From: a virus
Taxonomy: Duplodnaviria > Heunggongvirae > Uroviricota > Caudoviricetes
Length of the DNA stretch: 64,000 bases
Direction: 5' to 3' (one strand)
Virus record (IMG/VR): IMGVR_UViG_3300033692_000022
Part shown: piece after piece, positions 13,819 to 64,000 of the stretch
Numbering within the stretch: the first letter of the stretch is position 1
How the letters are laid out: the number at the start of each line of letters is the position of its first letter
The notes under the pieces: model-generated
Told to the model about the DNA's origin: nothing
What the model saw: only the letters and a program-made list of their open reading frames with translations
The model's database searches: none
Position numbers and translations under genes: made by a program

Positions 13819-14241
13819 ATGGAAGATTTAACTATTAAAAATCTGGATGCTAAAAAAATAAGGTTAAAATTTGGTGATGAAGCTATAGTAGCAACCAGGA
13901 AAAAATTAAATACAAAGCATGTAGGTGCCAAAAGGGTACGCATAAGAGCAGTAATCAATGGAGACAAAAAAGAATTTTGTTATTTTGGGAGGTTCAAACT
14001 CCCTGTAAAGGATAAAAACAAAGTTAGAATCAAAGGCAACAATGGTCAGTGGGTTGAAGGAAAAACGATCAACCTGCTCAAACCACCTACTATATCTTCT
14101 TCTACAGTAAGAAAACCATATTCTCCAAATCTTCAAGTGGAGGTGATTAATACTCCAATAAGGCCAGACACCCTATCTGTTTATAATGAAAAAGTATTGC
14201 AGCACCCCAGAAAAATAGAAACAAGTACCAAAAAAATATAA
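13819..14241 (+). CDS. Hypothetical basic virion protein
   Basis: 140-aa ORF, Lys/Arg-rich, with a TACATGG start context. Confidence 0.3.
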   Translation: MEDLTIKNLDAKKIRLKFGDEAIVATRKKLNTKHVGAKRVRIRAVINGDKKEFCYFGRFKLPVKDKNKVRIKGNNGQWVEGKTINLLKPPTISSSTVRKPYSPNLQVEVINTPIRPDTLSVYNEKVLQHPRKIETSTKKI

Positions 14242-14253
14242 GGAGTTGGTAAT

Positions 14254-15459
14254 ATGCCAAAAAGAACAAAATTAGTATTTGATAGAAACAGTGATGACAC
14301 ACAAAAGTACAATGTCTACAGAGGCAACCAGACAGGAGTTACAAGTTCTTCTGAGCTTGTAATGGAAATTTCCCAGCCAGCAGCACAGTCTGTTATTAAA
14401 GATGTAGTTGGAGAAACTCTTAGTGCAGACGCAGAATTTTTAGTCTATACAGCTGGTCACAAAAATATAATAAACGATGGAACAAATTATCCAGTTACAG
14501 TTTATGTTAATGGGACAGAACAAACAACAGGATTCACCATTAACTATTTACTCGGTAAAGTTACATTTGATGTAGCTTTAACAGTAAATGATGTAATTAC
14601 AATGGATTACAGTTATGACGCGGTAGAGGTTTTAGATGATGACGGTACACAGACTAATGTAACATTCTTAGGAACAGTAGCACAAGACTTAGCTGCTCCA
14701 GATATTCCTGCAAACCCAGGCATAGTTGGAGACGACGCCAATAACAAAGCGATAGTATCATGGGATGGAGTATTAGCAGATAACGGAAGTCAGTACTTTT
14801 ACAAAGTAGAAGCAGAAGATGAGGTAGGAAATAAATCTACATTAACTGCAGAAGTAGCAGCAGTATTAACTGAGGGACTTCATGCAAACCCTTATGTTCT
14901 TGAGAAATCAGAAGACGGAGGAAACACCTGGAGTATAGTAGGAGAATTTAGTACTACTTCCTATGAGGAGACAGGAGTAGATACTACTGCACCAGATGGA
15001 GTGGCTTCTTTAGTATCTACAGTTACAGAAGTTGGAGATCCATTAAAACCAGCTGTTCAGCTTACATGGCAAAACCCTGCTGATGACAATGAAACAATGT
15101 CTCTGACTTATAGAGTTAAATCACAGGATGCTAATGGGAATGTTTCTAGTCCAGGAGCTGCAGTTGGACCGGTTCCAGTATCAACAGGACTTAAAAGAGT
15201 ATTCATTAAGCGTAAGGTAGATGACGGAACTTACCCAACTAATAACGATACCTCTCTTGTAGTATTCGATTCTACAGATTTCACAAATCAATCTTTTGTT
15301 GATTTAGATGTAGCAGAAGATACAATATACAACTACTCAGTTTTTGTTGAAGATAATGCAGCGAACGTATCGGTTGCGGCTACAGTTCAGGCTTCAGTTG
15401 GAGACTTCACTGCTCCTGAAACAGTAACTGGATTAGCAGCTGAGGAAGTAACTATATAA
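14254..15459 (+). CDS. FN3/Ig-like repeat structural protein, possibly an abundant tail or decoration protein
   Basis: It carries several fibronectin-III-like modules (QYFYKVEAEDEVGNKSTL; LTYRVKSQDANGNVSSPG). A strong GC hairpin terminator follows, and its N-terminus is paralogous to the next gene. Ribosome-binding site AAGGAGTTGGTAATATG. Confidence 0.4.
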   Translation: MPKRTKLVFDRNSDDTQKYNVYRGNQTGVTSSSELVMEISQPAAQSVIKDVVGETLSADAEFLVYTAGHKNIINDGTNYPVTVYVNGTEQTTGFTINYLLGKVTFDVALTVNDVITMDYSYDAVEVLDDDGTQTNVTFLGTVAQDLAAPDIPANPGIVGDDANNKAIVSWDGVLADNGSQYFYKVEAEDEVGNKSTLTAEVAAVLTEGLHANPYVLEKSEDGGNTWSIVGEFSTTSYEETGVDTTAPDGVASLVSTVTEVGDPLKPAVQLTWQNPADDNETMSLTYRVKSQDANGNVSSPGAAVGPVPVSTGLKRVFIKRKVDDGTYPTNNDTSLVVFDSTDFTNQSFVDLDVAEDTIYNYSVFVEDNAANVSVAATVQASVGDFTAPETVTGLAAEEVTI

Positions 15460-15472
15460 TACTAAATAAATA

Positions 15473-15492
15473 GGCGGGGGCTTCCCCGCCTT
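15473..15492 (+). terminator. Rho-independent-like terminator hairpin (GGCGGGG-gctt-CCCCGCC)
   Basis: A 7–8 bp all-GC stem directly after the stop of the FN3-repeat gene, followed by a short TT. Confidence 0.5.
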
Positions 15493-15515
15493 AAGATACA
15501 TAAAGGAGTGATAAA

Positions 15516-16055
15516 ATGCCACTAGGTATAAGAATTTCATGGAATAAAAACAATGATGACACAGTAGAATACGGAGTCTGGAGGAGAACAGAGTCAACAG
15601 AACTCTCAGAAATAACAAGAGTGCCTCAACCTACAGATCAAACTAGCCCATCTTATAACGATGAAAATATAGATATAGCGGATCCAACAGCGCCTGGTAT
15701 TACAATAAATAGACCAACGACCACAAGTGCAACTGTAGAGATAACAACAGTATCTACAGATGCAGCAAATCCTGTTTATTACTATTCAATAAAATCATAT
15801 GATGAGGCCGGCAACAGCTCACCATTGTGTCCAGAGGTAAGTCTGCAGCCTTCAAATGCAATAGATAGATATGAATGGACACTAATAAATGATGCAGATT
15901 CAAGCACAGTAGACAGTGGAGTAATAGACCCACTTAATCCAGTATCAGCAGAGACAACACTAACAGCTGGAGAAACTTATCATTACGAAGTTAAAGCTGT
16001 AGATCTTGACGGAAACGAAAGTACATTAACTTCATCCGAGCCATTTACAGTATAA
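15516..16055 (+). CDS. FN3-like structural protein, paralog of the 14254 gene N-terminus
   Basis: ISWNKNNDDTVEYGVWRR aligns with FDRNSDDTQKYNVYRG of the upstream gene. YYYSIKSYDEAGNSSPL is an FN3-like strand motif. Confidence 0.4.
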   Translation: MPLGIRISWNKNNDDTVEYGVWRRTESTELSEITRVPQPTDQTSPSYNDENIDIADPTAPGITINRPTTTSATVEITTVSTDAANPVYYYSIKSYDEAGNSSPLCPEVSLQPSNAIDRYEWTLINDADSSTVDSGVIDPLNPVSAETTLTAGETYHYEVKAVDLDGNESTLTSSEPFTV

Positions 16056-16069
16056 GAGAGGTGAAATAA

Positions 16070-16615
16070 TTGACTACAGAATTTGAAAGACACTATGATA
16101 ATATAGGAGAAATTATAGATGCTCAAGACGTCAATGAGCTGCAAGATGTAATAAATATCAATGAACAAAATATCCAGATGTTAAGAGATGTTGATTTCGA
16201 AGATTTTTCCCTTTGGCTACTTAAAAACAGGGAGGAATTCAATCGTTTATGGATAGATACATTCAATGACAAGACTAAGATAGATGAAGTTGAAAGCTCA
16301 AAATTAATATACCTACCTAAAGATAGAATGGTAAAAGTCAGGAGAGATCAGGATTTTGCAGAGCTTTATTCTAAAGCCTATAATGATGATGAAAATATAA
16401 ATAGAGCTATCCTGCTAACACAGACCGCGGTGCATAATAGTGAAGATTTAATAAAATTTCAAATATCTATTAATGGTATGTCTTTTGAGGATATACAACC
16501 TAACGAGTTATTCGAGCCTGATAATATAGGTAATAGTTTTAAGTTAAAAGCGCTGTTTAACAAAGATAGTGAGAAAGGACCAGAGCTCTACAGATGGGCT
16601 TTGCTCTGGGGATAA
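16070..16615 (+). CDS. Hypothetical protein (TTG start)
   Basis: 181-aa ORF with GAGGTGAAATAATTG ribosome-binding site spacing. Confidence 0.3.
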   Translation: MTTEFERHYDNIGEIIDAQDVNELQDVININEQNIQMLRDVDFEDFSLWLLKNREEFNRLWIDTFNDKTKIDEVESSKLIYLPKDRMVKVRRDQDFAELYSKAYNDDENINRAILLTQTAVHNSEDLIKFQISINGMSFEDIQPNELFEPDNIGNSFKLKALFNKDSEKGPELYRWALLWG

Positions 16616-16638
16616 TATATTAAGGAAGGAGTGAAGGA

Positions 16639-17529
16639 ATGCCTCGGATACAAAAACTTATAGATGGTACATTTAAAAAAGTTGACAATAAAAGAGAAAG
16701 AGAACTACATGAAAAAATCGACCAGGAGATATTAGAAAGAATATCTGAAGATGATCGGATAGAGGATAAATTCACTAAAATAACAAATGATTTAGAGATA
16801 GATATAGATAATGTAGAAGAAGCACTTAACCAATTTATAATTGAACAAAATAATATAAATGATGAACTTAAAGATGAAATAGATACAGAAAGAAGTCAAA
16901 GACTTGAGGCAGATGACACACTCCAGTCCAATATAGATTCTGAAGAGAATGCTCGTAAATCAGAAGATCAAGCAATAAGGAATGCGATACAGAACGAAGC
17001 AGAAGAAAGAGCCTACGAAGACCAAAAACTTCATAATAAAATAGATGATGAGATATATGACAGAGAACAGGCAGATATAGAACTCAATGAAGTTATCAAC
17101 ACTGAAAGGTCCGAAAGAATAGAAGCTATAAACGATCTCGATTCCAGGCTAAGGCAGGAGATTGTTGATAGAGAAGACGCTGATAATTCTTTAGAGAAAA
17201 AAATAGAGCGCGAGACAAACGAAAGAAAACTTGATGTTAGAATCCTTAATCATAGAACAGATGAAGATACCATTCTTACAAATATGATAATGGATCTTGA
17301 CAGTGAGCTCCAATCTGAGACTAATGCAAGAGAAGCAGAAGACCAAGCACTGCATGCTAAGATAAACCAAGAAATAGCCGATAGAGAAAGTGATGTCTCA
17401 ACTCTTACAACAAATCTCGACAATGAAATACAAACTAGAGTGTCTGAAGTTAATAGACTTGATCAGAGAATAGATGATCATACTGATTCCAACAACTCAG
17501 ATCCGACAATAATCTACAGACTCAAATAG
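16639..17529 (+). CDS. Tail fiber coiled-coil repeat protein, N-terminal part of a split gene
   Basis: Acidic heptad-like repeats (LQSNIDSEENARKSEDQAIRNAIQNEAEERAYEDQ...). The same repeat continues in the −1 frame from 17487. Confidence 0.5.
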   Translation: MPRIQKLIDGTFKKVDNKRERELHEKIDQEILERISEDDRIEDKFTKITNDLEIDIDNVEEALNQFIIEQNNINDELKDEIDTERSQRLEADDTLQSNIDSEENARKSEDQAIRNAIQNEAEERAYEDQKLHNKIDDEIYDREQADIELNEVINTERSERIEAINDLDSRLRQEIVDREDADNSLEKKIERETNERKLDVRILNHRTDEDTILTNMIMDLDSELQSETNAREAEDQALHAKINQEIADRESDVSTLTTNLDNEIQTRVSEVNRLDQRIDDHTDSNNSDPTIIYRLK

Positions 17530-19064
17530 ATGAACTTGATACTATGCTATCGGATGAAGAAACTACAAGGTTTAATGCCGATAAGGCCTTGAGGGATGAC
17601 CTTGACGCTGAAGAGGCAGCAAGAATAGCCGGGGACAACAACCTACAGAACACAATAGACCAGTCAATAGATAATCTTCTGGCCAGAGAATTCTACGGGG
17701 TCGCAGAAGAGACACTCGGAACAGTAACTACTACAACATATGACTTAAATACATCTCAGGAAATAGTACAGGATGTAAGATATTTTGTAGTAATGAATAA
17801 TGACGGCACAGAGGTTATTGGAGATAGCGGCAGTCCAGTTAGTGTTGTAGACATATCTAATAAAACTATCACTTTTAGTGAAACTCCTAATCAAGATGTT
17901 GTTGTTCAGTTCGCAATCAAAAAAACATTAGGCACACTGCCTGCGGACGCACTAATAACTTATGATACCGTAGGTACTAAATTAGATGCAGATATTACCG
18001 AAGTTATAGGGGCCGCGTATTATGATGGGCGAAAGAATGTAGCAGATAACTTCTCACTGGATGTAAGAATAGAAAACGAGATAGAAGATAGAACCAACGC
18101 TGATAATTCTCTCCAAAGCAATATAGACTCTGAAGAGGCGGCAAGAATAGCAGCTGATAATACACTGCAGGATAATATAGATGCAGAAGAGGCGGCTAGG
18201 ATAGCAGCAGATAACGCCTTAGAGCAGACTATTGAAGACGAGGTACAAACAGCAATCACTCAGCTTCAGGCAGATATAGCGGCGGAAGAACAGGCCAGAA
18301 TAGATGCCGATAATGAACTGCGTAACACTATAGAAAATGAAGTCCAAACTGCAATAACACAAATGGAAGAAGACCTTGCGGCGGAAACAGCAGCCAGACA
18401 GCAGCAGATAGCAGACCTACAGGAACAAATAGATAATGATATACAGATAGCCATTGACCAGATGCAGTCAGATCTACAGGCCGAAAAGACAGCCAGACAA
18501 AATGCCGACGACGCATTACAGGCTCAAATAGATACACTTAATACTGAAGTAGCTTCTAAGTTTGATGACCTATATGATGACTTCTATGCTCACCACCACG
18601 ATTCTCAGTACGTAAATCAAGACGGAGACGAAATGACAGGAGACTTAAGTTTCTCTGCCGGTAAAGGAATAGAGTGGTATGAGAATACTGATGGGGCTGA
18701 AATCAAGTTTAACAGTGATAGCGATAGCGCCCAACAGTCTAATCTTGAGTTTAGAGTAAGAGACAACATGGATGAAGGCTTTAAGTTTATAGCATATAAC
18801 GATGGTGTAGACGTAGACGGCATAGAGCTAATGTATATGAATAAAGATAACTTTGATTATCGCGGCCATGAAATCTGGCATGCAGGAAACGATAGCCACA
18901 ACTCAGGTTTAAATGCAGATATGGTCGACGGAGAACACAAAACAGAAGTTAAAGATAATGCTAGAAAACAAACAAATGAATTGAGATTAGAGACTAGAAC
19001 TTCTGATCCAGCAAATGCTGAGGTGGGTAGAATATGGTTAAGAACAGACTTAGTACCAGAGTAA
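17487..19064 (+). CDS. Tail fiber coiled-coil repeat protein, C-terminal part, ending in a DGDEMTGDL-type fiber tip domain. The frame is open from 17487 and the track ATG is at 17544.
   Basis: Repeats DNSLQSNIDSEEAARIAADNTLQDNIDAEEAARIAADNALEQ are followed by HHHDSQYVNQDGDEMTGDLSF, a motif recurrent in phage fiber distal domains. Confidence 0.5.
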   Translation, partial: FQQLRSDNNLQTQIDELDTMLSDEETTRFNADKALRDDLDAEEAARIAGDNNLQNTIDQSIDNLLAREFYGVAEETLGTVTTTTYDLNTSQEIVQDVRYFVVMNNDGTEVIGDSGSPVSVVDISNKTITFSETPNQDVVVQFAIKKTLGTLPADALITYDTVGTKLDADITEVIGAAYYDGRKNVADNFSLDVRIENEIEDRTNADNSLQSNIDSEEAARIAADNTLQDNIDAEEAARIAADNALEQTIEDEVQTAITQLQADIAAEEQARIDADNELRNTIENEVQTAITQMEEDLAAETAARQQQIADLQEQIDNDIQIAIDQMQSDLQAEKTARQNADDALQAQIDTLNTEVASKFDDLYDDFYAHHHDSQYVNQDGDEMTGDLSFSAGKGIEWYENTDGAEIKFNSDSDSAQQSNLEFRVRDNMDEGFKFIAYNDGVDVDGIELMYMNKDNFDYRGHEIWHAGNDSHNSGLNADMVDGEHKTEVKDNARKQTNELRLETRTSDPANAEVGRIWLRTDLVPE

Positions 19065-23383: not shown

Positions 23384-23791
23384 ATGAGTATATTAAATAA
23401 CTTACCCAACTGGAATGCACAGTCAGATAGGGTTGTAGAACCAGATAACGATAAGAAAGCAGCTGGGTGGAGGCTCGGTGAAGAGCCACCTCCTGGTTAC
23501 TTTAACTGGTTCTGGAATCTCGTATCCGATTCATTAAATATTTTAGATACACATAATCACGATGATAGATATTACACCAAAGGTTACTTTGATTCTCACG
23601 ATCATGACAGTTTATATTACAGAAAAGATTACATCGATTCTCACGAGCACGACGACAGATATTACACAAAAAATGATGTTAATAGTATGCTCGGGGCCAC
23701 CTATATTGAAAGCCCAACTGTTGGTAATATATTAGTATCAGACACCGAGCCAACTAATGCAGAAGAAAACGACATATGGATAAAGTTATAA
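23384..23791 (+). CDS. Short tail fiber protein: conserved N-terminal anchor domain plus HxHD-RYY histidine repeats
   Basis: LPNWNAQSDRVVEPDNDKKAAGWRLGEEPPPGYFNWFWNLVSDSLNILDTHNHDDRYYTK is shared with five other fiber genes. It also has repeats SHDHDSLYYRK and SHEHDDRYYTK. Confidence 0.45.
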   Translation: MSILNNLPNWNAQSDRVVEPDNDKKAAGWRLGEEPPPGYFNWFWNLVSDSLNILDTHNHDDRYYTKGYFDSHDHDSLYYRKDYIDSHEHDDRYYTKNDVNSMLGATYIESPTVGNILVSDTEPTNAEENDIWIKL

Positions 23792-50032: not shown

Positions 50033-50042
50033 TTTTTATTAG

Positions 50043-50098
50043 TCCCCTATTTAACGGCGACCACAAATGGTCATAACCCCGCTAGATAGGGGATTTCT
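50043..50098 (+). terminator. Structured terminator-like element: 8-bp stem TCCCCTAT/ATAGGGGA enclosing an inner GACC-acaaat-GGTC hairpin
   Basis: Inverted repeat directly after the stop of the last late gene, followed by TTTCTAT. It separates the structural and lysis unit from the early promoter. Confidence 0.35.
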
Positions 50099-50162
50099 AT
50101 ACTCTGTTTGTAGTCTCAACTAATTTTATTCTTGCATTTCGCAGTTTTAGCACATTTTTATA

Positions 50163-50191
50163 TTGACAGTGTTTCATCTCTATGGTATAAT
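50163..50191 (+). promoter_or_regulatory. Consensus sigma-70-type promoter (TTGACA–17 nt–TATAAT) for the replication and recombination module
   Basis: ttgacaGTGTTTCATCTCTATGGtataat, with a perfect −35 and −10 and a 17-nt spacer, 65 nt upstream of the Rad52-like gene ribosome-binding site. Confidence 0.6.
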
Positions 50192-51080: not shown

Positions 51081-51162
51081 AAAGTTCACTGAAGTCCCTG
51101 TCGGTATAAAACCCGATGGGGACTAAACTCTTGAAAAGCACAAAAAGAATGGAGGTAATCCT

Positions 51163-51840: not shown

Positions 51841-52855
51841 AATAGAATTTGGTTGCCACTTACCTAATGGATACTTTAAAAGGGGAATGTTTATTGACGA
51901 AGGTGATTTACTTGAAAAGAGAAAAGAATTTTCAAACACTGGAATCTATAAAACAATATATTCTTACCAGAGTAAAGAGGTTGAGGGTAATCCAATCTAC
52001 GGTCCCTTTTATTTAGATTTTGATGCTGAGATGTGGGATGTTGACCCCAAAACAGCAGCCAAAAACTTAAAGAAAGTACAGGAAGATTTTAAGCAGGCGA
52101 TAACTTTCTTTGAGGTAATCTACAATATACCAAGAGAATATGCAAGAACATATTACTCAGGCAAAAAGGGCCTACATCTTATCTATCCGCCAGAGCTTTT
52201 TGCGATAGAACCCAGAGAAGACCTAAACAGAATCTTTAAATTAATCAAAGATGATGTCTGTAAGTATACAAAGAATGATACAGTAGACCAGAGAATTTAT
52301 GATAATAAGAGATTATTTCGAGTCACAAACTCGAGACACCAGGATACAGGATTATATAAGGTGCCGGCAGAGCCAGAGTTCTTACTTAATGCAACAGTTA
52401 AGGAATTACATGAGTATGCTAAAACACCAAAGGTAGTCGAATTTAAAGAGCCAAGAACGATAAGGAAAACCGCAAAGCATTATCGATCAGTAGTTGATAA
52501 ATTCGAATACAAAAAGAAGGAGCGGCAAAAGAGGTTGGAAAGATACAAGGACAAACCTCTAAAACACACTCCACCCTGTATAGACCACTTATTAAAAGAA
52601 GGGGCCAGAAAAGGATACAGAAATAACTCAATGGCCGCACTCACAAGTTTCTTAAAACAAAAAGGCTTAACAGAAGATGAGGTATTCATGAAGATTAAAA
52701 AATGGGGTAAAGAACAGTGCGTCCCACCAATACCTACCAATGAGATAAGGGCAACGGTGCCTTCTGTATATAGCAGTAATAAAAACTATGGATGTGCAGC
52801 ACTAAAAGAGTTATCAGAATGCGATATAGATAATTGCAAACTGGTTAAGAATTAA
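51797..52855 (+). CDS. Archaeo-eukaryotic-type primase (AEP / PrimPol-like) domain protein
   Basis: YLDFDAE (DxD metal site), SGKKGLHLIY (motif II) and LFRVTNSRHQDTGLYK (motif III-like) occur in the expected order and spacing. Confidence 0.5.
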   Translation: MLIKLSTKKEKLFSKIEFGCHLPNGYFKRGMFIDEGDLLEKRKEFSNTGIYKTIYSYQSKEVEGNPIYGPFYLDFDAEMWDVDPKTAAKNLKKVQEDFKQAITFFEVIYNIPREYARTYYSGKKGLHLIYPPELFAIEPREDLNRIFKLIKDDVCKYTKNDTVDQRIYDNKRLFRVTNSRHQDTGLYKVPAEPEFLLNATVKELHEYAKTPKVVEFKEPRTIRKTAKHYRSVVDKFEYKKKERQKRLERYKDKPLKHTPPCIDHLLKEGARKGYRNNSMAALTSFLKQKGLTEDEVFMKIKKWGKEQCVPPIPTNEIRATVPSVYSSNKNYGCAALKELSECDIDNCKLVKN

Positions 52856-53762
52856 AGGGGTCTTTTTCATTAACTTCCTTTTCTAAGACAGAATCAACAA
52901 CATGAGTATATATCTCAGTAGTGCCAAGATTAGAGTGGCCAAGTAACTGCTGAAGATGTCTAATATCCATCCCGGCTGAATGATAGAGCGTAGCGAATGT
53001 ATGTCGCAATGTGTGGCTAGAAACTTTCTTATTTAAGTCTAAATTTTTAACTAACTTTTTAACTATCCAGTGGATAGTATGTCGGGATATACGATTCTTT
53101 TTCTTAGAAACGAAGAGAGCATCAAGTTTAGTTCTAGGACGCTTATCGAGATAATCTGTTAACAGCGAATATGAGACACTATTTAGATAAGCATAGCGTT
53201 CCTTATTACCCTTACCCAAGAGTTTTATTCGTTTCTCTTTTAAGTTCAAATCCTGAATATCAATTCCAGTAACTTCGCTTACACGAAGTCCGGCCATTGC
53301 CATCAGAGCAAGCATAGCCTTGTTTCTCGCATAAAATTCTGTAAAGGTATTATCTACGCCGTCCAAAATTAGCTTAACTTGATCAGAACCCAAGTAAAGA
53401 GGTAACTTTTTGCTTCTAGGGGCATCGTAGTCAATCTTTTCCATAGGATTAAAATTTATCATGCCCTTATTGGCAACGAAGTTAAAGAAGGAATTGAGAG
53501 AAGAAACCTTCCTCGATACTGTTGTGGCGGCGTTCTCTCTGTCATCACTACAGTAATGAAGAAAGGATCTGACATGTTCTGGTGTAATTTCATCGAAAGT
53601 TTTAGGACCCGAATCGAGCTTTAATTCAAAGAAAAAAAGCAAAACTTCGATATCTCGAAGGTATTCTTCGATAGTTGTAAGGGATTTGTTCTTTTCGATT
53701 CTAAGATGATTACGCCAGGAGTTGAGTATTTCTTTTTCATTTTTCACAGTAGATTCCTCCAA
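52845..53762 (-). CDS. Tyrosine site-specific recombinase (phage integrase / XerC-D family)
   Basis: MAGLRVSEVTGIDIQDL...SHTLRHTFATLYHSAGMDIRHLQQLLGHSNLGTTEIYTHV gives the R..H..R..Y catalytic tetrad and LGH motif. It is the only sizeable minus-strand gene. Confidence 0.8.
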   Translation of the reverse strand: MEESTVKNEKEILNSWRNHLRIEKNKSLTTIEEYLRDIEVLLFFFELKLDSGPKTFDEITPEHVRSFLHYCSDDRENAATTVSRKVSSLNSFFNFVANKGMINFNPMEKIDYDAPRSKKLPLYLGSDQVKLILDGVDNTFTEFYARNKAMLALMAMAGLRVSEVTGIDIQDLNLKEKRIKLLGKGNKERYAYLNSVSYSLLTDYLDKRPRTKLDALFVSKKKNRISRHTIHWIVKKLVKNLDLNKKVSSHTLRHTFATLYHSAGMDIRHLQQLLGHSNLGTTEIYTHVVDSVLEKEVNEKDPFNS

Positions 53763-60878: not shown

Positions 60879-61670
60879 TTGGACGACAAAACATACACTT
60901 CAGAAGAAATCGAAGAACTAGTCTTTAATTATAAAGAGAGTGGGGAAAAGCAGAAGGCAGCTAAGGAGCTGCTGGACGCCTTCTTTCCTCTTCATAATAA
61001 ATACGTCAAGATACTAAAGAAAGGTACATGTAATGTTACAGACTCAGACACCAGAGGATTTCTGCACTTATGGATTGAAGATACTACAGAAAAGTACAAA
61101 TTCTTAAATAACTATAATACAGACTGGGCCAGAAGCTACGGAGCTAACATAGCCTCTTTCCTTACTGACCTATGTAAAACATTAAGTTATGATGACTTGT
61201 ACCAGGAACTCAGACTGATCACCCTAAAACTAGCAGATAGATATGAAGATATGGGTAAGTCTTTTCTTGCCTACATCAGTAAATCTTTTAAGTATGAGCT
61301 AAGAAGGAGCCTTAAGACTTTAATCGAGGACCCAGTTATTTATCTTCAAAACTATAATATGTATTATGATGATGAAGATGTTGAGTCTGGATTAAACGAT
61401 AGCTTTAACTCGGATACAAGACTTCAGTATAACGAGAAAGCATTCAGTATGGAATATAAACATCTGGGCCCTATGTGGCTGAAAGGTAAAACCTGCTCTG
61501 AAAAGTTTAAAGAACTCACTTTAGTGGAACGCAAGATTATTAAAATGTATTATTTAGATGGATTGCCAGATAAAGATATTGCAGAGGAGCTGGGCTATAG
61601 CCGCTCTTGGGTTAACTCTCTTCGCAAAGATATCGTAGAGAAATTAGAAGATGAAGAAAAAGTTTCTTAA
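60879..61670 (+). CDS. Phage-encoded sigma-70-family sigma factor
   Basis: Region 2-like LYQELRLITLKLADRYEDMGKSFLAYISKSFKYELRR and a region 4 HTH DKDIAEELGYSRSWVNSLRKDIVEKL. Confidence 0.5.
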   Translation: MDDKTYTSEEIEELVFNYKESGEKQKAAKELLDAFFPLHNKYVKILKKGTCNVTDSDTRGFLHLWIEDTTEKYKFLNNYNTDWARSYGANIASFLTDLCKTLSYDDLYQELRLITLKLADRYEDMGKSFLAYISKSFKYELRRSLKTLIEDPVIYLQNYNMYYDDEDVESGLNDSFNSDTRLQYNEKAFSMEYKHLGPMWLKGKTCSEKFKELTLVERKIIKMYYLDGLPDKDIAEELGYSRSWVNSLRKDIVEKLEDEEKVS

Positions 61671-61706: not shown

Positions 61707-61735
61707 TTGACATCTATGTTTCATTATGCTATAAT
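61707..61735 (+). promoter_or_regulatory. Second consensus sigma-70-type promoter (TTGACA–17 nt–TATAAT)
   Basis: ttgacaTCTATGTTTCATTATGCtataat, sharing the GTTTCAT spacer core with the 50163 promoter, 12 nt upstream of the nuclease gene ribosome-binding site region. Confidence 0.6.
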
Positions 61736-61746
61736 AAATATATCAG

Positions 61747-62472
61747 ATGGAAGGGGGAGACAAAATGCCTACAGAATTAGTTAGAGGTTATCTTGAAAAA
61801 GTAGAAGGATACGGCGAAGATTACAGTCTTGCTGATTTAATAAATAATAAACTCAGACAGGAAGAAATCTTTTCAGAACGCGATATGACGGTTTTCCACC
61901 CCTCTTCTGTTGGGTACTGCGCGAGAAAGGTGGCTGCCGACATGATCGGTACCTACCCTAAAGAACAGATTGAAGAAAGAATCTTAAGGGTATTTCAAAA
62001 CGGCCACTCTTCTCACGAAAGAATACAGAACTGGTTTAATGAGATGGGAATCATGGTCGAGGAAGAAAAGCGACTTACTGATGACGAACTCAATATAAAG
62101 GGTAACTGCGATGGGGTGCTTGAACTTGGTGATGATGGCCTATTTGTCTTAGAAATTAAGACTATAAGTGCCAAAGGCTATAGATACATTAAGGAGCCAA
62201 AACCAAAGCACTACGCACAGATACAGCTTTATATGCACCTTGCAGAAATCCATAAGGGGATTCTCTTTTACGAGTGCAAGGATGACCAGAGAATAAAAGA
62301 ATTTAAAGTCGAATATGACGAAGAATTTGTTGAAGAACTGATAGAAAAGATAAAATATATAAATGAATGTGTGGCTAACCGAGAGCTACCAGAAAGACAG
62401 TATGAGAAAAACAGCTTTGACTGCCGCTATTGTGAATACAGAGAAACAATATGCTGGCCAGACGAAGACTAA
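61747..62472 (+). CDS. Second Cas4-like PD-(D/E)XK nuclease with C-terminal Cys cluster. It also carries the YLEKVEG N-terminal motif.
   Basis: Core GNCDGVLELGDDGLFVLEIKTIS (D..E.K) with Q-h-x-x-Y (HYAQIQLYMH), CARKVAAD N-terminal Cys, and a C-terminal CRYCEYRETICW. Confidence 0.5.
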   Translation: MEGGDKMPTELVRGYLEKVEGYGEDYSLADLINNKLRQEEIFSERDMTVFHPSSVGYCARKVAADMIGTYPKEQIEERILRVFQNGHSSHERIQNWFNEMGIMVEEEKRLTDDELNIKGNCDGVLELGDDGLFVLEIKTISAKGYRYIKEPKPKHYAQIQLYMHLAEIHKGILFYECKDDQRIKEFKVEYDEEFVEELIEKIKYINECVANRELPERQYEKNSFDCRYCEYRETICWPDED

Positions 62473-62795
62473 CAAATTTACCAACACACATACCATGACA
62501 ATAAATCCTCGAAATAGGGAGTACCGACAATTAGCTTACCAGCTGGGTACTCCAAAAACTTAGCCGGGTCAACAATTAAATGGCTCAATGTTTGGTAAGC
62601 ACAAAGCCAGCCCGGTATTTTGTCGAAGAAGTTAGTAAGTCCACAGAACAAGTGGCATTGCTCAGAGAGCTATGGGGTTTACAATCGACTAAATATCGTA
62701 TCCTGCATATTGGGTTTTATTTAATTTTCCCCTCTATGCAGGACGATATAATACTTTCTTTATTCGTTATTGAATAAATTAGTTTGTTTCATATT

Positions 62796-63137
62796 GGGAA
62801 GGTGTGATGAGCCTTCCCTCTCCTTTCAAAATGGGATTAAGTAGTAGGAGGAGGTCTTGAAGGGTCCTCCTCCCTACGTAAACAACAGACTATACCAGTC
62901 TGCTGACATAGATTTATTGAATATATTTACTTATCCATTATTAGGGGAGGTCTATCCTCCCCACTCCTTAAGAAATCAACGGGCCTTGTAGTCCGATGAT
63001 ATAGATTTTCCTGAAAAGTTATTTTATATATGGGGGGGGGAGCTAATCTCTCCCTTCCTACAACAGCCACAGACCTTATGGTCTGTTGACATACATCTCC
63101 TAATTCCGCCCCTGAAATATTGGGGCGGTAATTTTAT
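62796..63137. repeat. GC-hairpin-rich intergenic region: five purine/pyrimidine (SD/anti-SD-like) hairpins plus two copies of a approximately 35-nt element containing a CAGAC-loop-GTCTG hairpin and TGACATA
   Basis: Hairpins at 62796–62818 (GGGAAGG/CCTTCCC), 62847–62873 (GGAGGAGG/CCTCCTCC), 62944–62962 (GGGGAGG/CCTCCCC), 63038–63054 (GGGAG/CTCCC) and 63106–63128 (CCGCCCC/GGGGCGG + TAATTTTAT). Repeat copies at 62882–62913 and 63062–63096. Confidence 0.5.
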
Positions 63138-63165
63138 CCCTAAAATATGAGAAAGAGGTGATTTA

Positions 63166-63372
63166 ATGGGATGGGGCGCAATGTTCATCTTCTTTATCTT
63201 ACTTATAATAATTGCAATATTACTACTTCTATTTGGCATAATGCCTAAGATCGGTGCAAAGTTTACTAAATATTTTAAGTGGGAAGAAGAGGATGTCGAT
63301 TACAACAAAGAACCAGACAATGCTGAGAAACCAGACACAGAAAAAGAAAATATCAAGGGGGAAACAATTTAA
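63166..63372 (+). CDS. Small membrane protein with an acidic C-terminal tail
   Basis: WGAMFIFFILLIIIAILLLLFGIM is a TM helix. Ribosome-binding site AGAGGTGATTTAATG. It lies directly upstream of, and abuts, the SPFH gene. Confidence 0.4.
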   Translation: MGWGAMFIFFILLIIIAILLLLFGIMPKIGAKFTKYFKWEEEDVDYNKEPDNAEKPDTEKENIKGETI

Positions 63373-64000
63373 ATGACAAACAAAGAAAAAGGAATTTTAG
63401 GACTAGTTATAGCAGGAGCAGTACTACTGTTAGCACTAATCGGTTTTTTCATGATTACGGAAAATATCGAACCAGGGTTTGTAGGATACGTCTATGATAG
63501 AACAATCGATCCAGACAGTCCCGAAGATAATGTAGTACCAGTATTACAAGGTACTTCTGTAATCGATAAGCCAAGATATGGTCTTGTATTTTTAAATCCA
63601 TTCACTCAGGAAATGTATATCTCTCCTACTACAGTGGTAAGTCGAAGCTGGACCAGGACAACCCAAGAAGGATCTAACCAAGATGATTCTATAGCAGCAG
63701 GAACAATCGAATCAAAAAATGTACCAGTAGATATTTATTTATCAGTACAGCCTTCAGATGTAGGTAAGATTATTAAAAACTGGGGTGTTGATAGAAGTTT
63801 CGAATCTATTGTTGATGATGAACTTTACGGAGTTATGAAGGGTGAGGTTAAGAAAGTAACCAGAAAAGTATCTGTTTATAACTTCCAGGCTAAAGTAGAA
63901 GAAATGCAGAAAGAAATATTTGAGAACTTAGACAAAGTACTCCAAACAAGATATGGTATTAAACTTGTTAGATTTGAGTTTGGTAATGTTCATATTCCAC
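63373..64000 (+). CDS. SPFH / band-7 (prohibitin-HflKC-like) membrane protein, 3'-partial at the window edge
   Basis: N-terminal TM (GILGLVIAGAVLLLALIGFFMI) followed by GFVGYVYDRT...VPVLQGTSVIDKPRYGLVFLNPFTQEMYISPTTV...DIYLSVQPSDV, typical of the SPFH domain start. No stop codon before the window end. Confidence 0.5.
   Translation, partial: MTNKEKGILGLVIAGAVLLLALIGFFMITENIEPGFVGYVYDRTIDPDSPEDNVVPVLQGTSVIDKPRYGLVFLNPFTQEMYISPTTVVSRSWTRTTQEGSNQDDSIAAGTIESKNVPVDIYLSVQPSDVGKIIKNWGVDRSFESIVDDELYGVMKGEVKKVTRKVSVYNFQAKVEEMQKEIFENLDKVLQTRYGIKLVRFEFGNVHIP

Follow-up and report, generated by a model that had tools for sequence, protein, structure and literature searches.

Promoter-early stem-loops (PeSLs) of T4-type phages are intergenic cassettes in which a polyG/polyC stem-loop terminator is combined with an early promoter and an AT-rich stretch, and genome modules are shuffled at these cassettes (Arbiol et al. 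2010, PMC2839356; Comeau et al. 2014, PMC4122927). In this study, we analyzed a 64,000-nucleotide stretch of DNA (referred to here as the window) from the Caudoviricetes record IMGVR_UViG_3300033692_000022, which is part of a large phage genome, and identified an intergenic block of eight stable stem-loops, three pairs of which are arranged as tandem units. The block lies between the gene for a Cas4-like PD-(D/E)XK nuclease and the gene for a 68-amino-acid membrane protein, which is followed by an SPFH gene. Tentatively, and on the basis of sequence, we interpret it as an RNA-level stack of attenuator and stability or processing hairpins between two early operons, which may have descended from triplicated terminator-promoter cassettes like PeSLs and which appears to sit at a recombination junction.

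The non-coding gap that holds the block covers 693 bp (62473-63165), and not the 350 bp given in the initial annotation, and it is the longest non-coding stretch of the window (the runners-up measure 233 and 223 bp). Its position between the nuclease gene and the small-membrane-protein/SPFH pair is as first described, and the GC-richness that had been ascribed to it is weak (40-43.5%, against approximately 36.5% for the window). The hairpin block itself occupies the right half of the gap (62796-63128), and the left half is structured too. Read as a + strand transcript, the array would run in the order H0, three H1-H2-box-tail units, and H3. All five of the GC hairpins first reported to open with a polypurine arm are present, and four of them do so: H0 (GGGAAGG/CCTTCCC, 62796-62818, -13.9 kcal/mol), H1A (GGAGGAGG/CCTCCTCC, 62847-62873, -18.2 kcal/mol), H1B (GGGGAGG/CCTCCCC, 62944-62962, -15.1 kcal/mol), and H1C (core GGGAG/CTCCC, 63032-63058, -18.1 kcal/mol), all on the + strand. 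The fifth, H3 (CCGCCCC/GGGGCGG, 63106-63128, + strand, -15.4 kcal/mol), has the reverse polarity and thus is not polypurine-first. H0 is an additional H1-type hairpin upstream of the three units, lacks an H2 or box of its own, and is terminator-like with its tail TCTCCTTTC. H1C forms an 11-bp RNA stem that includes three G.U pairs and begins with a G9 tract. H3 is terminator- or attenuator-like, is followed by TAATTTTAT (63106-63137 in all), and ends approximately 25 nt upstream of the Shine-Dalgarno sequence of the next gene. The smaller H2 hairpins, also on the + strand, are H2A (62886-62902, -7.5 kcal/mol), H2B (CGGGC/GTCCG, 62980-62995, -6.4 kcal/mol), and H2C (63070-63085, -10.9 kcal/mol).

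A repeat finder returned two three-member repeat families in register, with spacings of 94/90 and 93/90 nt. In each unit of approximately 92 nt, a G-rich/C-rich H1 and a 5-bp H2 are joined by a short spacer that ends in (A/T)CAAC or CCAC; a single base separates H2 from the box TGAYATA(G/C)AT, which is followed by an AT-rich tail. On the + strand, unit A (62843-62939) carries H1A, H2A, the box TGACATAGAT (62904-62913), and its AT-rich tail; unit B (62940-63029) carries H1B, H2B, the box TGATATAGAT (62997-63006), and a similar tail; and unit C (63030-63105) carries H1C, H2C, and the box TGACATACAT (63087-63096), which contains a perfect TTGACA. The initial annotation had recorded two copies of a CAGAC-loop-GTCTG hairpin with TGACATA, each preceded by a GC hairpin in a direct repeat of approximately 60 nt. 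Both copies are exact (62886-62913 and 63070-63096) and an H1 does precede each, but a third, middle copy (CGGGC-cttgta-GTCCG-A-TGATATAGAT, 62980-63006) was overlooked, and the repeat actually consists of three tandem units of approximately 92 nt. Members of the 19-nt repeat family are 79-84% identical, repeat identity ranges from 68 to 84%, and whole units are approximately 70% alike; conservation within the unit is highest in the single-stranded box YTGAYATA(G/C)AT that follows H2.

The density of structure in the block is exceptional for this DNA. Individually, the eight hairpins fold at -6 to -18 kcal/mol with z-scores of -1.9 to -4.2, and the block as a whole has a fold z-score of -5.0. 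When perfect GC hairpins were counted (stem of at least 5 bp with at least 4 GC), the block contained six, whereas 500 dinucleotide shuffles averaged 0.62 and never exceeded 4. Among 364 sliding windows of 351 nt, three or more such hairpins occurred only in those overlapping the block, which also holds 4 of the 7 perfect GC hairpins of at least 6 bp found in the whole 64 kb. A lenient scan for intrinsic terminators (GC-rich hairpin plus U-tract) was passed by H0 and H3 only, H1A-C and H2A-C having no T-run. Matches of the terminator scan are at chance level across the window, and the phage therefore seems not to rely on canonical intrinsic terminators. Similar single G-rich/C-rich hairpins, each with a pyrimidine tail, stand at the ends of other gene clusters, one after the Tad2-like gene (13204-13226 on contig L001) and one in a relative (2717-2735 on L006). 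Other strong hairpins at gene-cluster ends (15472-15491, 50041-50100, and 51093-51134) are likewise devoid of U-tracts; two of these start with AGTCCC, and the hairpin at 51093 has G.U pairs on the + strand.

The gap shows little sign of coding capacity. A 17-amino-acid open reading frame (ORF) from 62806 is frameshifted in contigs L002-L004, and a 65-amino-acid ORF at 62580-62777 is broken in contig L294. A 44-amino-acid ORF with a TTG start (62857-62991) is intact in all variants, with only two substitutions inside it, and is provisionally treated here as non-coding. Neither gene remnants nor paralogues were detected by tblastx of the gap against relatives or by blastn against the rest of the visible genome, which comprises the window and a 4.4-kb extension taken from the tail of L001 (approximately 68 kb of 202 kb).

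Variation within the block preserves pairing. The comparative data consist of the window and contigs L002, L003, and L004, the four being 92-100% identical here, together with the paralogous unit copies. H2 is paired in 40 of 40 cells across eight unit copies (the three paralogues in the window plus variants); one pair position changes from AU to GC, which is compensatory, and another from AU to G.U, and the middle unit keeps its H2 in this way. The five H1-type stems (H0, H1A, H1B, H1C, and one in a replacement segment of L003) differ in sequence, length, and loop; all are complementary. Approximately 12 variant events separate the four contigs, and only 2 fall in core stems. Both are A-to-G substitutions in a 5' arm that produce a G.U pair on the + strand, one in H1A (L002-L004) and one in H2C (L003). 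A loop change in L002 and L004 adds one base pair to H0. The H3 loop (63114-63123) differs between the pair formed by the window and L003 and the pair L002 and L004 by five substitutions and one insertion in 10 nt; in the latter two contigs, the outer five pairs of H3 are kept and a T bulge shifts the two inner ones. This loop change resembles patch replacement and not point mutation. The G9 tract at 63032-63040, in the 5' arm of H1C, is G6 in L002 and L004; such a tract is prone to slippage, which alters stem length.

The same data bear on the strand that might act. The hairpin energies add up to -164.4 kcal/mol on the + strand and -148.6 kcal/mol on the - strand, 8 of 11 hairpins are better on the + strand, and H1C reaches 11 bp only when its three G.U pairs are allowed. 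A + strand assignment also agrees with gene orientation and with a consensus promoter at 61707 that fires toward the gap.

Within the block, the grouping of alleles changes at least four times. The window and L003 differ from L002 and L004 at 62811, the window differs from the other three contigs over 62827-62988, L003 alone differs over 63004-63073, the first grouping returns over 63114-63148, and the window again differs from the other three from 63234 onward. In L003, the segment 63004-63073 is a non-homologous replacement that supplies a further hairpin and a further TTGACAT and puts a different hairpin in place of H1C. These switches and the replacement in L003 indicate that the block is a recombination junction; neighboring genes show similar allele switching.

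The block is restricted to one phage lineage. The identical Cas4-like nuclease protein occurs on four metagenomic contigs, one of which is 202,621 bp long. No copy of the unit was found elsewhere in the window or its 4.4-kb extension, and a distant blastn search of INPHARED phages gave no match to the block. The pattern of H2 plus box returned only scattered single chance matches in unrelated taxa from IMG/VR, Joint Genome Institute (JGI) metagenomes, and GTDB genomes, the sole true match of those scans being a JGI contig (L218) that is the same as L004. A look-alike hairpin followed by TGATATAA in L006 (1640-1660) was dismissed as chance, since it lies inside a coding region. The block is absent from relatives whose nuclease is 74% (L005) or 62% (L006-L015) identical and from relatives whose SPFH protein is 70% (L106) or 66% (L107) identical. 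In L005, a single hairpin comes after the nuclease gene, together with a consensus promoter that serves an AbrB-like gene, and in the L006 group the nuclease gene is followed by an HD-domain gene. The contig with a 93% identical nuclease, L294, is silent on the right half of the gap because it ends inside hairpin d of the left half. On the downstream side, the 68-amino-acid membrane protein (MGWG.MFIFF...) and the SPFH/Band-7 protein form a portable cassette (63166-64000 in the window) that stands behind unrelated DNA in other phage-like contigs (7836-9101 in L106 and 535-1930 in L107).

A promoter that could feed the block is located upstream. The TG-extended sigma-70 consensus promoter TTGACA-17-TATAAT (61707-61735, + strand, 12/12) lies 740 bp upstream of the gap and drives the nuclease gene and, unless transcription is terminated, the gap. 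It is one of only two TG-extended 12/12 promoters between 44 and 64 kb; the other (50163-50191) opens the early/replication region, downstream of the hairpin at approximately 50041-50100. The 8-mer TGTTTCAT, found in the spacer of both perfect promoters, also occurs at 62786-62793, just upstream of H0.

We suggest that transcription from the promoter at 61707 continues through the nuclease gene into the spacer, where H0 and H3, with their U- or pyrimidine-rich tails, would attenuate read-through, and the tail-less hairpins would act as 3' and 5' protective or processing structures. The net effect would be to uncouple the level of nuclease mRNA from that of the downstream membrane protein/SPFH/Tad2-like operon. 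The unit itself may have originated as a terminator-promoter cassette, now decayed, in which a G-rich/C-rich stem-loop was followed by a -35-like hexamer (TTGACA, CTGACA, or ATGATA) and, in units A and B, by a weak -10-like hexamer 17-18 bp further on; this cassette would have been triplicated and would now also form a junction between genome modules. We regard this explanation as possible, at somewhat less than an even chance. Of the four candidates first proposed, an RNA-level locus (a small RNA or antitermination) fits best: it agrees with the upstream promoter, the stem changes that are G.U-compatible on the + strand only, and the greater hairpin stability of that strand, but Rfam gives no match, and such a locus is a candidate only.

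Several observations count against a stack of attenuator and stability hairpins. Hairpin d in the left half of the gap, with a U-rich tail at approximately 62750, could stop read-through from 61707 before the block is reached. H1A-C and all H2 hairpins are not canonical intrinsic terminators, as they have no U-tract, and a pure hairpin barrier leaves the conserved single-stranded box YTGAYATA(G/C)AT unexplained; the box after H2 could be a promoter relic or a protein-binding site. The whole-region fold is about equal on both strands (z-scores of -5.0 on the + strand and -5.8 on the - strand), and the comparison involves four genomes that are 92-100% identical plus paralogous copies, with 2 stem changes and approximately 5 G.U against 1 A.C. 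Because these counts are small and the region folds equally well either way, the evidence for the + strand as the acting strand is suggestive and not proof. In addition, our view covers approximately one third of the 202-kb genome.

Other explanations must be weighed against these data. It is possible, although rather unlikely, that the block has no function of its own and represents duplication or recombination debris of terminator-promoter cassettes, with only hairpin d, H0, and H3 doing ordinary terminator work. Its confinement to four near-identical contigs and absence from all relatives with the same flanking genes, its variable and mosaic content (the L003 replacement and the G-tract length), and its degenerate promoter-like boxes are consistent with debris. 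However, substitutions spare or repair the stems, the replacement segment in L003 again encodes hairpins, and all eight hairpins are perfect or near-perfect despite a divergence of the units to approximately 70% identity. The degenerate boxes can also be read as active tandem promoters for the membrane-protein/SPFH/Tad2-like operon, recognized by the phage sigma or weakly by host sigma-A, with H2 as a regulator-binding palindrome, which we consider unlikely. A sigma-70-family gene (60879-61670; TIGR02937 at 46.5 bits, region 4 clear) does lie 1.2 kb upstream, and its product is too diverged for its sites to be predicted. No sigma-70 promoter of acceptable quality belongs to the downstream operon itself, and the scan accepted none of at least 9/12 on the + strand of the gap (62473-63165). 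By eye, unit A offers CTGACA-17-TTTACT (9/12 but without the -11 A) and unit B offers ATGATA-18-TATTTT (8/12), so that both carry -35-like and -10-like hexamers, and CAAC stands 16-17 nt upstream of TGAYAT in each. Unit C has a perfect -35-like TTGACA, but its spacing differs and H3 sits where the -10 should be. A phage-sigma promoter set would be expected to repeat before several genes that share a temporal class. The motif TGAYATASAT has 6 matches, 3 of them in the gap and the other three inside genes (two on the + strand and one on the - strand), and CAAC-N16/17-TGAYAT occurs only in the gap within the window and extension. No box, H2 plus box, or CAAC-N16/17-TGAYAT precedes any other gene in 68 kb, and none is present in relatives carrying a homologous sigma, which weakens the proposal in the initial annotation that these are phage-sigma promoters; the further copies of the H2-TGAYATA unit that it called for were not found in the window and extension or in those relatives. 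Moreover, H2B alters both half-sites in a complementary manner, which keeps a hairpin and not a protein-binding site, transcripts from units A and B must cross the next strong hairpins, and the genuine promoters of this genome are perfect consensus sequences.

A replication origin, also proposed at the outset, would make the 19-nt repeats iterons and place AT-rich tails and extrudable hairpins beside the replication/recombination module. In lactococcal and streptococcal phages, the origin lies after the replication genes, in non-coding DNA that abounds in direct and inverted repeats. The block fits this description in being directly downstream of the primase, DnaB, nuclease, and RuvC module, in belonging to the largest non-coding region of the window, and in having three direct repeats with AT-rich spacers. 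We nevertheless find an origin quite unlikely, and the data give it little support: the repeats are 79-84% identical and 90-94 bp apart, the H1 stems vary in sequence and loop length and fit poorly to one initiator protein, and the changes are compensatory or G.U with a bias to the + strand. DnaA-box-like sites number 20 against 20.1 expected and are absent from the gap, the cumulative GC skew increases monotonically without an inflection, and the block is missing from relatives with the same replication genes. A packaging site has no support either, as none of the 18 window proteins scanned, including the products of the genes flanking the gap, has a terminase PHROG match. A pac or cos site would be expected beside the terminase genes or at the genome end; the neighbors here are RuvC, sigma, Cas4-like, membrane-protein, SPFH, Tad2-like, and ribonucleotide reductase genes. 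The array might instead produce a trans-acting modular non-coding RNA, a decoy/sponge or a set of processed units that binds a host or phage protein via H2 and UGAYAUAGAU, in the way that CsrB-type sponges, ToxI antitoxin arrays, and RNA anti-CRISPRs act as modular RNAs. Three structured modules with a conserved single-stranded box, a possible -10 at 62747 and a terminator-like H3 after the array (yielding an RNA of approximately 375 nt), and anti-defense neighbors (Cas4-like upstream and Tad2-like downstream) are compatible with such an RNA. It is very unlikely in our judgment, since the array has no Rfam match even at E<=10, no convincing promoter, units that are only approximately 70% alike, unlike the near-identical repeats of ToxI and CRISPR, no PADLOC match downstream (ToxN/AbiQ-like or other), and a distribution limited to one lineage. 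A more specific form, in which the three H1-H2-UGAYAUAGAU modules are a phage decoy RNA, excised from the nuclease transcript or made from the TATAAT at 62747 to H3, that titrates or misleads a host RNA-binding or defense protein, strikes us as highly improbable. Were it correct, an RNA decoy between a Cas4-like gene and a Tad2-like anti-defense operon would constitute a new class of phage anti-defense or regulatory RNA.

The left half of the gap (62473-62790, + strand) is non-coding and structured, with hairpins at 62518-62553 and 62563-62616 and hairpin d at 62693-62749 (57 nt, -23 kcal/mol, z-score of -7), and its fold z-score is -3.7. It is approximately 88% identical in L294 and could be a structured 3' untranslated region, a terminator, or a separate RNA. 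A perfect TATAAT hexamer (62747-62752, + strand) with a poor -35 overlaps the 3' arm of hairpin d. This hexamer, read by eye and not accepted by the promoter scan, might act as a weak promoter for both the block and the operon downstream.

The flanking genes are both on the + strand. The nuclease gene (61747-62472) has Cas4 matches in PHROG, Pfam, and PADLOC. Its ORF is listed from 61747. However, GGAGGGAGGTGA at 61750-61761 resembles a Shine-Dalgarno sequence placed for an ATG at 61765, so that translation probably starts at this ATG and yields a protein shorter by 6 residues. The 68-amino-acid membrane protein gene (63166-63372), preceded by the Shine-Dalgarno sequence AGAGGTGAT at 63154-63162, opens the membrane-protein/SPFH/Tad2-like operon. 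The Tad2-like (anti-Thoeris) gene ends this operon past the end of the window (L001 12923-13226 region) and is followed by the hairpin AGGGAGGG/CCCTCTCT. In L001, a ribonucleotide reductase gene (14075-16642) is apparently interrupted by an ORF for a NUMOD4/HNH endonuclease, which probably marks an intron or intein.

All long ORFs of the window but one are on the + strand. Virion proteins are encoded in the first approximately 50 kb, and the early/replication region from approximately 50.2 kb onward encodes a PriCT primase, a minus-strand tyrosine recombinase, DnaB, two PD-(D/E)XK nucleases, RuvC, the sigma-70-family protein, and the Cas4-like nuclease. The recombinase gene (Phage_integrase, 52845-53762), the sole minus-strand gene of the window, stands between the primase and DnaB genes of this phage of approximately 200 kb. 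In-frame tandem repeats occur in an ORF with a weak tail-fiber PHROG match (17544-19064; a 54-nt repeat in 2.1 copies at 18099-18214) and in the ORF 23384-23791 (a 45-nt repeat in 2.5 copies at 23558-23671). A search for tRNA and tmRNA genes found none. Among deposited phages, there is no close relative, the top match reaching 32-35% protein identity (Bacillus and Moorella phages). Moorella phage MTATph1 keeps the RuvC/sigma-like/Cas4-like triad, with DNA polymerase next and no gap between. The nearest cultured relatives infect Firmicutes, and the host is probably a Firmicute; GGAGG upstream of most genes of the window and the two perfect TG-extended promoters likewise point to host machinery of the Firmicutes type.

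Compared with known systems, the array has several partial counterparts. CRISPR arrays consist of near-identical 24-40-nt repeats with unique spacers of similar size. A CRISPR array or solitary repeat unit was rejected here, the period being 90-94 nt and the identity 68-84%, and TRF reports no array. Rfam, including nut/put-type elements, riboswitches, GOLLD/ROOL, and 6S, has no gathering-score match in the window, and the best gap matches at E<=10 score 14-20 bits against thresholds of 33-72. We also considered resemblances by eye to a Cas12a or type I-F repeat, the lambda nut boxA/boxB, the MazF site UACAU, the AR9 late promoter AACA-N6-TW, the B. subtilis dif arm, the sporulation-sigma -10 CATACA-T, and the extracytoplasmic function (ECF) -35 AAC; each either matches no more than a single unit or is contradicted by spacing or loop conservation. 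As in ToxI arrays, CsrB, and RNA anti-CRISPRs, tandem structured repeats are followed by a terminator-like hairpin and then by protein genes. Unlike ToxI, whose near-identical repeats measure 34-45 nt, the repeats here measure 92 nt and are approximately 70% alike, and the downstream proteins are not ToxN-like; the 68-amino-acid and SPFH proteins have no PADLOC match. GGA-loop motifs and a CRISPR-repeat architecture are also missing.

Like lactococcal and streptococcal phage origins and iteron origins such as lambda ori, the block is non-coding, stands beside replication genes, and combines direct and inverted repeats with AT-rich stretches. Iteron-type origins have several near-identical 17-22-bp direct repeats that are close and regular. 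The repeats here are too diverged and distant by comparison, the hairpins covary, no skew or DnaA-box signal is present, and the block is not conserved with the replication module. The likeness to intrinsic and tandem terminators and to Gram-positive 3'/5' stabilizer hairpins lies in GC-rich stem-loops at operon boundaries and in the pyrimidine- or U-rich tails of H0 and H3. In contrast to those elements, most hairpins here have no U-tract, eight stand in series, and three belong to a repeated two-hairpin unit with a box.

PeSLs differ from the block in having a consensus sigma-70 promoter (-35 and -10 at 16-18 bp), where the boxes here are degenerate and no match of at least 9/12 was accepted in the gap. 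They are also dispersed and flank small ORFs, whereas the units here are in tandem with no ORF between them and no dispersed copy in 68 kb; furthermore, H2 gives each unit here an additional hairpin, and the probable host is a Firmicute and not a proteobacterium. The element is confined to one lineage with a function that is only inferred, and it opens no long-standing question. What the block shares with PeSLs are G-rich then C-rich stem-loops (H0, H1A, H1B, and H1C, at -14 to -18 kcal/mol), G.T pairs, promoter-like boxes, and AT-rich DNA, as well as insertion, deletion, and replacement differences between close relatives (63004-63073 in L003 and at least 4 allele switches). Because the stem-loops and the variation agree and the consensus promoter and dispersed copies do not, we use PeSL-like as a working description and do not classify the block as a PeSL. 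If our interpretation is correct, a large uncultivated phage with relatives among phages of Firmicutes makes an inter-operon insulator by multiplying a terminator-promoter-like cassette, which would make it easier to annotate boundaries between modules, as well as regulatory RNA structure, in jumbo-phage genomes from metagenomes, and stem-loop cassettes would mark recombination junctions beyond the T4-type phages in which they were first described.

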